From the NCBI GenBank assembly GCA_018061945.1, contig JAGOTD010000005.1, positions 2,278 through 66,277 on the forward strand: a stretch of 64,000 nt of DNA, read 5' to 3'. The position numbers and the translations under genes are program-made. Below, piece by piece: positions 4,611-57,113 of this stretch. The notes beneath the pieces are model-generated. The model made no database searches. It was not told the DNA's origin and saw only the letters and a program-made list of their open reading frames with translations. This stretch comes from Candidatus Peribacteraceae bacterium. Its GTDB lineage: Bacteria; Patescibacteriota; Gracilibacteria; Peribacterales; Peribacteraceae. How positions within the stretch are numbered: position 1 is the stretch's first letter; every line of letters starts with the position of its first letter.

Positions 4611-4686
4611 GGATCGGTAGCTCAGTTGGTAGAGCAGGAGACTCTTAATCTCTTGGTCGTGGGTTCAAATCCCACCCGATCCACCA
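4611..4686 (+). tRNA. tRNA-Lys (anticodon CTT)
   Basis: Manual cloverleaf. Acceptor is GGATCGG/CCGATCC. D arm is GCTC-AGTTGGTA-GAGC. Anticodon stem is GGAGA/TCTCT with loop CTCTTAA. T arm is GTGGG-TTCAAAT-CCCAC. CCA is encoded. Confidence 0.9.
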
Positions 4687-4748
4687 TTCGTCGCTTTGCT
4701 CCTCATGGCAAGCCACGATCTTCAAGCTTGCCCTGAGCATACGAAGGG

Positions 4749-4769
4749 TCCCACCCGATCCACCATTCG
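4749..4769 (+). repeat. Direct repeat of the tRNA-Lys 3' end
   Basis: tcccacccgatccaccattcg at 4670-4690 recurs exactly at 4749-4769, an offset of 79 nt. Confidence 0.85.
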
Positions 4770-20930: not shown

Positions 20931-21659
20931 TCACTTATTATTTAGCTTCATAAACGTCAAAATTGTATTAAGTAATAGATAATAGGTCCAGGTTAAGTAT
21001 GGTTCATCAATATCTTTTTGTTGATCATTATGATGACGAATTCCATAATTATTTAGAATATCAAAAATAGTCCTTTCGTCAGTTTTTAGACTATTATCAG
21101 TTTTTAAATCTTTACGAATTGACTCAAGTACTTGCCCTAGTGCCTGAATCGAGCTTTTCTTTTCCTCTACTGTCGAATTTCTCTTAAAGAATAGATCTTT
21201 GGCATGCGCAATTTTTTCTTTAGCTGATAGCACATCGCTTTTCGGAATTTTAGCATCAGCTAAATCTATTAATTCAATTTCAGGAATAAATTCAATAAGC
21301 CCATTTCTCATCCTATATCCCCATTCTTTTAGTGCATCCTCTAGGAGGAATTGCAGCAACATTGAGCGGATAAGCTTCTCATCTCTAGAATCTTTATATT
21401 CTTCAAGAAATTGATAAGCGCATTCGAGCATATCAAATAGATCATTTTCATTTGATACAATTTCAATATTTCTAGGTGTAAGGTCTAAGTCTTTTGTTTT
21501 TAGAAGGAAAAAGTGTTCCAAGGTTTCTATGTCGTATTTGTATTGTTTAAATTCGCCGCCTTCAAAAAGTAAATCTGTAAATGGCTTACTGCATAGTTTT
21601 CTGAGTATATAGAAGCTTCCTTTTTTTATTTCGCCTTTTTTTCTTTCAGAGAACAGCAT
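20931..21659 (-). CDS. Orphan hypothetical protein in a strongly AT-rich islet
   Basis: 242-aa ORF, K/E/L/I-rich, with no recognised motif. It lies directly next to the 3' end of tRNA-Val(GAC). Confidence 0.7.
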   Translation of the reverse strand: MLFSERKKGEIKKGSFYILRKLCSKPFTDLLFEGGEFKQYKYDIETLEHFFLLKTKDLDLTPRNIEIVSNENDLFDMLECAYQFLEEYKDSRDEKLIRSMLLQFLLEDALKEWGYRMRNGLIEFIPEIELIDLADAKIPKSDVLSAKEKIAHAKDLFFKRNSTVEEKKSSIQALGQVLESIRKDLKTDNSLKTDERTIFDILNNYGIRHHNDQQKDIDEPYLTWTYYLLLNTILTFMKLNNK

Positions 21660-21679
21660 GTATTAATTGTCATCTATAA

Positions 21680-21756
21680 TGGTGGGCAATACAAGATTCG
21701 AACTTGTGACCTCCACAATGTCAATGTGGCGCTCTAACCAGCTGAGCTAATTGCCC
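21680..21756 (-). tRNA. tRNA-Val (anticodon GAC)
   Basis: Manual cloverleaf. Acceptor is GGGCAAT/ATTGCCC. D arm is GCTC-AGCTGGTTA-GAGC. Anticodon stem is CCACA/TGTGG with loop TTGACAT. T arm is ACAAG-TTCGAAT-CTTGT. CCA is encoded. Confidence 0.9.
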
Positions 21757-21775
21757 GAGATGTGAATGATAACGG

Positions 21776-21806
21776 TCTAACCATCGGCCTAGGCCGATAA
21801 TTGCCC
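21776..21806 (-). pseudogene. tRNA-Val(GAC) 5' fragment with a palindrome-substituted D arm
   Basis: The minus strand reads GGGCAATTA-TCGGCCTAGGCCGA-TGGTTAGA. It is preceded by a second copy of the 13-nt upstream motif TATCATTCACATC (21810-22; first copy 21759-71). Confidence 0.8.
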
Positions 21807-21924
21807 GACGATGTGAATGATACTCTTTACTATGAGCCGAAGCTGCAAATTGCCCATTTTTGCCTGCAAAGAGTACGGAAAACGACTTAGGTGGTCAATG
21901 TCAAAGAGGATAATACGCGCGCCA

Positions 21925-21943
21925 CCGGGACGCAGCGTCCCGG
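21925..21943. repeat. CCGGGAC...GTCCCGG hairpin word
   Basis: The reverse complement of ccgggacgcagcgtcccggctgcgg (21925-21949) is ccgcagccgggacgctgcgtcccgg, which matches ccgcagccgggacaccgtgtcccgg at 57071-57095 apart from the central spacer. Confidence 0.7.
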
Positions 21944-21989
21944 CTGCGGATATAAAACTACTTGATAATTGATCGTTGAATATTTTTTG

Positions 21990-22050
21990 ATATTTGTTTC
22001 TTCTATCTTGGAAATTGTCTAGGATTTAGAATTTTGGTCTTCGTATTTTT
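21990..22050. repeat. Family F word element copy
   Basis: gaaattgtctaggatttagaattttggtcttcg matches gaatttgtctcggatttagtattttgatcttcg at about 6699-6731. Confidence 0.6.
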
Positions 22051-22098
22051 ATACTTCTCTCATTTCCTCCTACATTTTTTCTTTTGCAATACGAACTG

Positions 22099-22124
22099 TG
22101 TGGATAACTTTTGAGTTTTCCACA
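22099..22124. promoter_or_regulatory. Two facing DnaA boxes
   Basis: TGTGGATAA at 22099-22107 is a perfect reverse complement of TTATCCACA. TTTTCCACA at 22116-22124 has one mismatch. Confidence 0.6.
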
Positions 22125-35103: not shown

Positions 35104-35220
35104 CTCCTTGATCACTCTTCGGCTCCGCTCCCGCCTTCGTCAGCCGCGGCTGACTACGGACGGGCAAGCAGAGTGACACGCTATTGTTTGTTAGTTTTTT
35201 CTCTCTGCTATCATATTTCT

Positions 35221-52192: not shown

Positions 52193-52423
52193 ACGACTAT
52201 AGTACACGTTTACTATTGATCATATGGTGCATGCACGAATGCTTTGTGCTGTTTTTCCAGCATGCCTTTCGAGTGAAGTTATTTGTTAGCTAAAGCCACG
52301 TAAAGCTCGCGTGATGTTTTCATTGCCAGATCTAGTTGGCTGCGCTACGCGTGGCGCAGCCTTTGTGGAAGTATTGCCCCACTTCGCTAAAGCTACGCGG
52401 GGCACACTCCGCTGCGCGAAGTG

Positions 52424-52507
52424 TGGTGGGCGCCAAGGGATTCGAACCCCTGACCCTCTCGGTGTAAACGAGATACTCTAACCATCGGCCTAGGCCGATA
52501 GGCGCCC
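52424..52507 (-). pseudogene. Variant tRNA-Val(TAC) copy with a palindrome-substituted D arm
   Basis: It is identical to the intact copy from the anticodon arm to CCA. Positions 10-16 (GCTCAGC) are replaced by TCGGCCTAGGCCGA and GAGCA becomes GAGTA. The D stem cannot form, giving 84 nt. Confidence 0.75.
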
Positions 52508-52766: not shown

Positions 52767-52843
52767 TGGTGGGCGCCAAGGGATTCGAACCCCTGACCCT
52801 CTCGGTGTAAACGAGATGCTCTAACCAGCTGAGCTAGGCGCCC
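52767..52843 (-). tRNA. tRNA-Val (anticodon TAC)
   Basis: Manual cloverleaf. Acceptor is GGGCGCC/GGCGCCC. D arm is GCTC-AGCTGGTTA-GAGC. Anticodon stem is TCTCG/CGAGA with loop TTTACAC. T arm is AGGGG-TTCGAAT-CCCTT. CCA is encoded. Confidence 0.9.
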
Positions 52844-52864: not shown

Positions 52865-52904
52865 TGGTGGGGCTCTAACCATCGGCCTGGGCCGATAGGC
52901 GCCC
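52865..52904 (-). pseudogene. tRNA-Val(TAC) 5' fragment with the palindrome, fused to CCACCA
   Basis: The minus strand reads GGGCGCCTA-TCGGCCCAGGCCGA-TGGTTAGAGCC-CCACCA. It lies 21 nt upstream of the intact tRNA. Confidence 0.75.
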
Positions 52905-57056: not shown

Positions 57057-57113
57057 GTGTATCAATACATCCGCAGCCGGGACACCGTGTCCCGGAAGAG
57101 GTATGATTATTGG

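Follow-up and report, generated by a model that had tools for sequence, protein, structure and literature searches.

The tRNA-Val(GAC) locus and its tagged fragment

The window analysed here is the whole stretch of 64,000 nucleotides (nt) taken from contig JAGOTD010000005.1 of a Candidatus Peribacteraceae bacterium. Directly upstream of its intact tRNA-Val(GAC) gene, the minus-strand interval 21822-21757 is composed of a 13-nt motif, tRNA nt 1-9, a palindrome of 14 nt, tRNA nt 17-24, ccgt, a second copy of the motif and tc, letter for letter as an original prediction made from the sequence had read it. The interval repeats part of the 5' region of tRNA-Val(GAC) in tandem, namely the leader motif, nt 1-9 and nt 17-24, with nt 10-16 of the D-loop swapped for the GC-rich palindrome. 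The resulting fragment, named A2 (Table 1), is one of a class of palindrome-tagged tRNA copies that recurs throughout the lineage. Two features lay beyond the original prediction: a decayed, older fragment A1, whose position matches that of the single fragment in relative L095, and an open reading frame (ORF) for a GIY-YIG nuclease that overlaps a full-length tagged tRNA copy at a second locus, that of tRNA-Val(TAC). The window has the look of a Peregrinibacteria/Peribacteria chromosome, and the genes dnaA, rseP and tgt are found nearby.

Table 1. Features of the tRNA-Val(GAC) and tRNA-Val(TAC) loci of the window
Feature	Positions	Strand	Remarks
Promoter-like element TTGACC-N17-TACTCT	21870..21898	-	conserved upstream of tRNA genes in relatives (also L095, L100, L107)
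Decayed, older fragment A1 (GGGCAATT TGCAGCTTCGGCTCA TAGTAAAGAG)	21823..21855	-	just upstream of A2 and its motif copy
Distal copy of the leader motif, TATCATTCACATC	21822-21810	-	followed by gtc; 21807..21822 duplicated along with the fragment
Fragment A2, tagged 5' fragment of tRNA-Val(GAC)	21776..21806	-	made up of the three parts in the next rows
A2, tRNA nt 1-9, GGGCAATTA	21806-21798	-	
A2, 14-nt palindrome TCGGCCTAGGCCGA replacing D-loop nt 10-16	21797-21784	-	
A2, tRNA nt 17-24, TGGTTAGA	21783-21776	-	
Native 5' leader of tRNA-Val(GAC)	21757..21775	-	ccgt junction, TATCATTCACATC (21771-21759), tc
Intact tRNA-Val(GAC)	21680..21756	-	ARAGORN; Rfam 73.4 bits
Tagged fragment of the TAC locus	52865..52904	-	nt 1-9, TCGGCCCAGGCCGA, nt 17-26, CCCACCA; internally deleted tagged copy upstream of intact tRNA-Val(TAC)
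Intact tRNA-Val(TAC)	52767..52843	-	ARAGORN, Rfam
GIY-YIG (UPF0213-type) nuclease ORF, 84 amino acids	52490..52744	-	22 nt past intact tRNA-Val(TAC)
Full-length tagged tRNA-Val(TAC) copy	52424..52507	-	nt 1-9, TCGGCCTAGGCCGA, nt 17-77; 60/61 identical to the intact gene

The same palindrome had been noted at 52.4-52.9 kb, and matches to the 14-mer are indeed present there at 52485 and 52882. Together with the copy at 21784 they make three occurrences in the window when up to two mismatches are allowed, against 0.13 expected; none of 100 shuffles gave three matches. In all three copies the 14-mer replaces GCTCAGC of a tRNA-Val-like sequence, and the palindrome extends to 16 base pairs (bp) when the flanking A and T are counted. 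The exact 13-mer motif is confined to its two places at the GAC locus. Over 19 nt the D-arm of tRNA-Val(GAC), TAGCTCAGCTGGTTAGAGC, does not differ from that of tRNA-Val(TAC). The D-loop of the intact tRNA-Val(GAC) also varies slightly by lineage: it reads GCTCAGTTGG in L095 (5590-5608) and L100 (9673-9700), and TGGCTAGAG in L116 (2425-2451) as against GCTCAGCTGGTTAGAG in the window.

ARAGORN, and Rfam at its gathering score, call only the two intact genes as tRNAs; the fragment and the full-length tagged copy are passed over by both. A simple scan of 21600-22120 gave no intrinsic terminator, the hairpin of the fragment continuing into TGGTTAGA without a T-run. Folding of leader plus tRNA was uninformative (z = -1.9); what it mainly brings out is that the nt 1-9 repeats compete for the 3' acceptor strand.

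In all lineages with a comparable leader the motif, in the form TTCACATC, is placed 2-3 nt before tRNA-Val(GAC), and it is found upstream of neither tRNA-Lys nor tRNA-Pro in the window. It follows the fragment in L095 and precedes it in L102. Since it is kept in L100, which has no fragment, and is absent upstream of tRNA-Lys and tRNA-Pro, the motif is best taken as native tRNA leader and not as a general promoter element, contrary to what had been proposed; the idea that it is part of an inserted unit was discarded because of L100 as well.

A candidate promoter lies further upstream, and the suggestion that the motif would give the fragment a short transcript of its own is not supported. This element, TTGACC-N17-TACTCT, is located 14 nt upstream of A1 and ~63 nt upstream of A2, and the pattern TTGAC(A/C)-N16-17-TAC(C/T)(C/A)T is conserved upstream of tRNA genes at GAC and tRNA-Ile loci. 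Cross-locus conservation is the sole basis of its assignment: a simple sigma-70 scan detected no promoter at the GAC locus, this element included. As it lies upstream of A1, both fragments would be inside the presumed pre-tRNA leader and, if it acts as a promoter, they are probably transcribed solely within that leader and removed by 5' processing.

Nuclease cassettes and tagged copies in related genomes

At the TAC locus the final six codons and the stop of the 84-amino-acid ORF lie in the tagged tRNA copy. The ORF end reads G-R-L-S-A-stop, encoded by tRNA nt 1-9 and the palindrome, whose central TAG supplies the stop. The protein matches PF01541 over residues 1-68 with 49.8 bits (cut-off 22.6), and residues Y5, Y15, G17, R25, H29, N30 and E63 are invariant or nearly so in the family alignment. 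Its sole sequence matches in the PDB are two UPF0213 proteins, 1ZG2 (BH0048) and 1YWL (EF2693), with E values of 1.6e-8 and 5e-8. By sequence, the ORF product is assigned to the UPF0213/YhbQ (Slx1-like) subfamily of the GIY-YIG superfamily. No NCBIfam family was obtained for this protein or for a 242-amino-acid ORF next to tRNA-Val(GAC), and PADLOC gave weak matches only. Proteins of UPF0213/YhbQ type are very common, with 4137 matches at E<=1e-3 in a representative library.

The order intact tRNA, GIY-YIG ORF, tagged tRNA copy is the same everywhere, in six lineages seen as DNA, and the ORFs of these cassettes code for 84-88 amino acids directly behind intact tRNA-Ile(GAT) or tRNA-Val(TAC). 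The host gene is tRNA-Val(TAC) in the window, in L093 and in L004, which is the orthologue of the window TAC locus. It is tRNA-Ile(GAT) in L003, L108, L111, L112 and L114: in L108-110, L111, L112 and L114-115 a gap of 5-14 nt separates the tRNA from the ORF, which is followed by the tagged copy, and in L003 a decayed GIY-YIG ORF stands between tRNA-Ile(GAT) and a tagged tRNA-Ile copy. L003 and L004 belong to a single metagenome-assembled genome (MAG), which therefore holds two diverged nuclease copies at two different tRNAs, one of them a pseudogene. L093 has a 343-bp unit twice in tandem, and L094, L004 and the window have it once. The presence at two tRNA sites in one MAG and the tandem unit may be signs of mobility.

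Comparison of tagged and intact copies within cassettes points to a composite ancestry. In L114 three of the nine positions ahead of the palindrome differ between the two, and the 61 that follow it (nt 17-77) are all identical. In L108 the T-stem of the tagged copy differs in all five pairs and is still fully complementary, which would follow if another tRNA-Ile allele were the source of one copy. Ancestry thus appears to switch at the palindrome in both lineages.

Homologues of the nuclease were searched with an alignment as query, the single-sequence query with the 84-amino-acid protein having retrieved one cluster only. A close subfamily of 55-68% identity is found in Peregrinibacteria and Patescibacteria. 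At least 13 of the 120 best homologues have a carboxyl terminus ...LSA or ...LSAxADG, residues encoded by tRNA nt 1-9, TC(N)GCC NN GGC(N)GA and TGGTTAG, and several others read the tag in another frame (..YPPKADG). The representative protein P0128 ends IGQLSAEAD..., which implies that its gene forms a cassette on a tRNA with GGGCAATTA, i.e. one like tRNA-Val(GAC).

Among distant UPF0213-type homologues, many called ORFs read into flanking tRNA sequence, so that linkage to tRNA genes may be general across the family. Examples are P0136, P0141, P0147, P0170, P0193 and P0278, in which flanking tRNA genes are read through as peptides such as SSVVER, AVNR..GSNP and RFESL. Some distant homologues are tandem ORF-tRNA-ORF fusions.

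The segment following the tagged copy in the window (52330-52423, minus strand) shares the ordered blocks CACTTCGC, GTGTGCCCCGC and GCGAAGTGGGGCA with positions 4020-4125 of L112, an Ile cassette from another genus; GCGAAGTGGGGCA is roughly reverse-complementary to the junction at the tRNA 3' end. Because these downstream blocks are common to the Val-TAC cassette of the window and this Ile cassette, the mobile unit may extend past the tagged tRNA copy. A second, unrelated-looking GIY-YIG ORF of 90 amino acids (PF01541; 51935-52207, minus strand) follows the cassette at a distance of 220 nt. Both L004 and L093 conserve it, with a 345-amino-acid ORF, missing from the window, between it and the tagged copy. 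The flanks of the 90-amino-acid ORF are not tRNA-like and an exact look-up of its sequence gave no match.

The figures on related loci given here rest on ~25 relevant loci; those orthologous to the GAC locus were fetched via homologues of RseP and, across seven other Peribacteraceae lineages, have between 0 and 2 fragments. The window (RseP identity 100%) has two tagged fragments, A1 decayed and A2 intact. One fragment is present in L095-L099 (RseP 89%), with palindrome TCAGCCTAGGCTGA and upstream of the leader motif, and one in L102-L104 (69%), with palindrome TCCGCCAAGGCGGA and between motif and tRNA. L105/L106 (68%) have two in tandem, and there is none in L100 (66%), L107 (66%) or L116 (67%). 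The junctions between fragment and leader are unlike each other at each of these loci, which argues for repeated independent events. As copy number and junctions vary and copies decay, the GAC fragments would be the outcome of such events followed by drift and not a conserved gene.

Tagged fragments are found at other tRNA-Val loci too. In L002 a fragment lies upstream of tRNA-Val(CAC) and its nt 1-9, GGACGATTA, match that neighbour. L001 contains a sequence like tRNA-Val(CAC) in which D-loop, anticodon region and T-arm all bear palindromes. Two earlier proposals are borne out by these data: each fragment derives from its own neighbour, the GAC fragment bearing the acceptor sequence of the adjoining tRNA, and the palindrome was introduced repeatedly, as tagged fragments occur at GAC, CAC and TAC loci. 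A lineage-specific neutral scar, anticipated should relatives lack such fragments, is not what is seen, given that L095, L102 and L105 have them at GAC loci, L002 has one at a CAC locus, and TAC loci have them as well. All tagged tRNAs have the same 19-nt D-arm. The tRNA-Lys and tRNA-Pro of the window have other D-arms, and no tagged copy of them was found.

A scan of a genome collection for the palindrome followed by TGGTTAGA gave matches solely in MAGs of Peregrinibacteria or Peribacteria. Of two scans of viral contigs, one gave 0 matches and the other a single chance match, in a high-GC coding region (L113). An assembly artefact is ruled out by the presence of the structure in independent NCBI, ENA and Logan assemblies.

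Origin of the palindrome and of the fragments

The palindrome occupies tRNA positions 10-16 in all window copies with tRNA context and in 15/15 distinct units, and is then followed by TGG(TTAGAG). Seven nt are replaced and no target-site duplication surrounds it. Its arms exist as the covarying variants TCGGCC/GGCCGA, TCAGCC/GGCTGA and TCCGCC/GGCGGA and are paired throughout in the 15 units (105/105 cells). One of the seven pairs varies, being G-C in 10 units, C-G in 4 and A-T in 1, the units being related to each other; the observed covariation score was reached by 0 of 500 shuffles. The central dinucleotide is variable (TA, CA, AA, GC). This pattern is compatible with an RNA or DNA hairpin, with a symmetric protein site, or with separate source elements that each have a perfect palindrome.

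Several simple origins were considered and rejected. The palindrome does not behave as a D-loop intron, for its removal does not restore the D-stem. P-nucleotides or snap-back synthesis do not account for it, as the flanks do not template the arms. Simple insertion accompanied by target-site duplication would suit the window and L102 but neither L095 nor L002.

Further palindromes were observed in and around these loci. In the tagged copy of L001 (7692-7840), TCCGCCATAGGCGGA replaces nt 36-42 of the anticodon arm and CACACCTACGGTGTG is found in the T-loop; the tagged copy of L108 (4229-4333) has a clean 20-nt insertion, CCTGCCTGCCGGCAGGCAGG, inside the anticodon loop, and that of L111 (4238-4342) has an insert in the T-arm. 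An intergenic family is represented by two perfect 19-nt palindromes at 21925-21943 and 57077-57095, which have the context ATCCGCAG-CCGGGAC..GTCCCGG in common and covarying inner stem bases (GC/GC vs AC/GT); L095 lacks the first of them in its orthologous region. The 16-bp perfect palindrome GTCAGCCGCGGCTGAC at 35139-35154, ~820 nt from tRNA-Pro, has arms like TCAGCC/GGCTGA in a non-tRNA intergenic context and may be a chance sequence or a terminator-like hairpin.

The reading that is preferred, at a probability of roughly one half, is that a homing-type nuclease cassette targets tRNA genes with the 19-nt D-arm and that the solo fragments are duplications left by break repair, which later decay. 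The cassette would be a selfish element whose nuclease breaks the tRNA genes having the TAGCTCAGCTGGTTAGAGC D-arm (Ile-GAT, Val-TAC, Val-GAC, Val-CAC), the conserved tRNA sequences flanking the ORF would provide the homology for repair, and the palindrome would mark a destroyed D-arm in the non-functional copy. Upon a break in tRNA-Val(GAC), the end with the local nt 1-9 would copy a short patch, made up of the palindrome and TGGTTAGA, from a tagged copy at another genomic site; the TAC cassette of the window, with its identical 14-mer, is a candidate source. Repair would then resume on an intact template upstream of the break, leaving a tagged 5' fragment in tandem with the intact tRNA. If only products that retain the intact, essential single-copy tRNA are viable, the fragment would be found upstream of the intact gene. 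Fragments would build up in the pre-tRNA leader and then decay, having neither promoter nor function of their own. The fragment at the GAC locus is thus most likely a repair by-product of a selfish tRNA-targeting nuclease and not a gene in its own right.

A number of points weigh against this account. Cleavage by the nuclease and its specificity are predicted only, and the catalytic domain spans the whole chain of the 84-amino-acid protein, in which no separate DNA-binding domain was found, unlike in known site-specific GIY-YIG homing endonucleases. The presumed target is intact in the tRNA adjoining the cassette, where self-cleavage must be tolerated or avoided. Fragments stand upstream of the intact gene and the tagged copy of the cassette stands downstream, and the palindrome of the L095 fragment (TCAGCC...) differs from that of the cassette on the same contig (TCGGCC...). 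The account leaves unexplained how different tRNA species were first colonised without chimeric tRNAs, as well as the origin of the palindrome and its perfect covarying arms, which hint at selection on a hairpin or on a symmetric binding site. The loci retrieved include no empty TAC or Ile site for a presence/absence comparison.

An unlikely alternative sees the tagged copies as functional elements: tRNA mimics, transcribed within the pre-tRNA leader or as the 3' end of the nuclease mRNA, that carry a stable hairpin where the D-loop would be cleaved or recognised. Their role could be that of an uncleavable decoy, an immunity element, an antitoxin-like inhibitor, a guide, a binding site of the UPF0213 protein or a regulator of leader processing. 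Perfect arms in 15/15 units, the free centre and the three kinds of pair seen at one position would be accounted for in this way, but only one stem position covaries and different source elements could explain it. In L105 both palindromes are still perfect next to mutated tRNA-derived flanks, and every copy retains nt 1-9 and nt 17-24/25 as its flanks. Their location downstream of the conserved promoter-like element makes transcription of the fragments probable. Set against this are signs of turnover, the fragment missing at three of eight orthologous loci (L100, L107, L116) and one window copy being decayed, and local duplication is the simpler account of the matching acceptor sequences. GIY-YIG enzymes are known only as DNA nucleases, which counts against a functional RNA.

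It is improbable that the palindrome is an autonomous GC-rich mini-element, like the GC clusters of mitochondria or the hairpins of repetitive extragenic palindromic (REP) sequences and miniature inverted-repeat transposable elements (MITEs), inserting into loops of tRNA genes without any part of the GIY-YIG gene and tolerated only in redundant or truncated tRNA copies from ordinary duplication. The additional palindromes in other loops of the L001, L108 and L111 copies speak for it, as does the count of short GC-rich hairpins in the window, 28 as against roughly 16 in shuffles, including the 21925/57077 family. Yet every TC(N)GCC..GGC(N')GA copy found replaces nt 10-16, and the single site outside a tRNA D-loop, at 35139, looks unrelated. 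The scatter over unrelated sites and the target-site duplications of a dispersed palindromic repeat were thus not seen. Such an element would also leave the tight linkage to the nuclease ORF unexplained and require a prior tRNA duplication at every locus.

It is more doubtful still that the tagged copies are working partners of the UPF0213 nuclease, serving as mimics of tRNAs or tRNA genes with the TAGCTCAGCTGGTTAGAGC D-arm, a hairpin taking the place of the site of action, in the role of immunity or antitoxin, docking site or guide, with the solo leader fragments as selected protective copies.

A neutral scar, left by an integrase-type island at the tRNA or by a chance slippage duplication, is highly implausible: an island of 30% GC, absent in close relatives, does lie directly downstream of tRNA-Val(GAC) (20931-21659), but L095-L099 have the fragment without the island, integrase scars repeat the tRNA 3' end downstream while here the 5' end or the whole tRNA is repeated, the 5' end upstream, no recombinase ORF was found at either window locus, and chance cannot put one and the same palindrome at an identical tRNA position in at least 10 independent loci.

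The 242-amino-acid ORF of that segment (minus strand, ~30% GC vs ~52% in the flanks) is a small foreign island, judging by its absence in relatives L095-L098. It has no Pfam or NCBIfam match and a weak PADLOC match to PDC-S32 (E 6e-5). In the tRNA-Lys(CTT) region (4611-4768) the last 17 nt of the tRNA, CCCACCCGATCCACCA, plus TTCG are repeated 62 nt downstream at 4749-4765. This repeat is a scar resembling an integrase attachment (att) site, left by an integrated or excised element through a mechanism distinct from that of the 5' fragments.

Significance and relation to known systems

The loci described here define a consistent genomic rule for one subfamily of the UPF0213 type, a family with no assigned function: the gene of this subfamily stands between an intact tRNA and a disabled, tagged copy. 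If the cassette homes as proposed, tRNA-targeted GIY-YIG homing would extend from T-even phages to chromosomes of candidate phyla radiation (CPR) bacteria, and an essential, ultra-conserved gene would serve a selfish nuclease both as target and as homology while the host survives. Homing would also explain tRNA-like pseudogenes and leader expansions in reduced genomes. Should nuclease and tagged copies work together instead, this would be the first function, directed at tRNAs or tRNA genes, for a widespread orphan nuclease family. Fragments and read-through ORFs distort the annotation of tRNAs and proteins in CPR MAGs. The covarying palindrome is the one truly unexplained feature, for which no mechanism is known.

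Literature searches turned up no account of tagged tRNA copies, nor of UPF0213 genes flanked by tRNAs. The nuclease resembles UPF0213/YhbQ proteins (Slx1-like; PDB 1ZG2, 1YWL; PMC1564403) in size, single-domain organization and sequence. The description of that family includes neither tRNA linkage nor tagged copies, and no function, target or rule of genomic context is established for it.

The free-standing endonuclease SegB of T-even phages is a GIY-YIG homing enzyme that recognises a conserved tRNA motif (PMC2330249), and its breaks lead to recombination-dependent tandem amplification of tRNA segments (PMC13096335). The likeness lies in a GIY-YIG gene placed among tRNA genes, a site within a tRNA motif and preferential inheritance (PMC2330249; PMC13096335); the tandem amplification has possible parallels in the 343-bp duplicate of L093 and in the partial tandem duplicates of the GAC locus. 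With ~220 amino acids, SegB is a phage protein that has a DNA-binding region and targets the T-psi-C motif, whereas the protein found here has 84 amino acids and the catalytic domain only, is chromosomal in CPR bacteria, and it is the D-arm that is affected. Nothing has been described for SegB that compares with an ORF having an intact tRNA on one side and a disabled copy of it on the other, or with the covarying palindrome.

Mobile endonuclease ORFs of fungal mitochondria, such as that of atp6 in Allomyces, insert into a host gene and bring a replacement for the end that they displace. There, as here, an essential target is kept functional, the element lies between an intact and a displaced or disabled target, and the junctions fall inside the target gene. 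The mitochondrial elements differ in that their targets code for proteins and that a plain 3' fragment is displaced, with no palindromic substitution. Integrase islands likewise use tRNA genes as insertion hot spots and leave partial tRNA repeats that mark the insertion. Theirs are direct repeats of the 3' end, located downstream and accompanied by a tyrosine or serine recombinase, while the loci described here have upstream 5' fragments or whole tRNA copies, no recombinase, and a palindrome in place of part of the D-loop.

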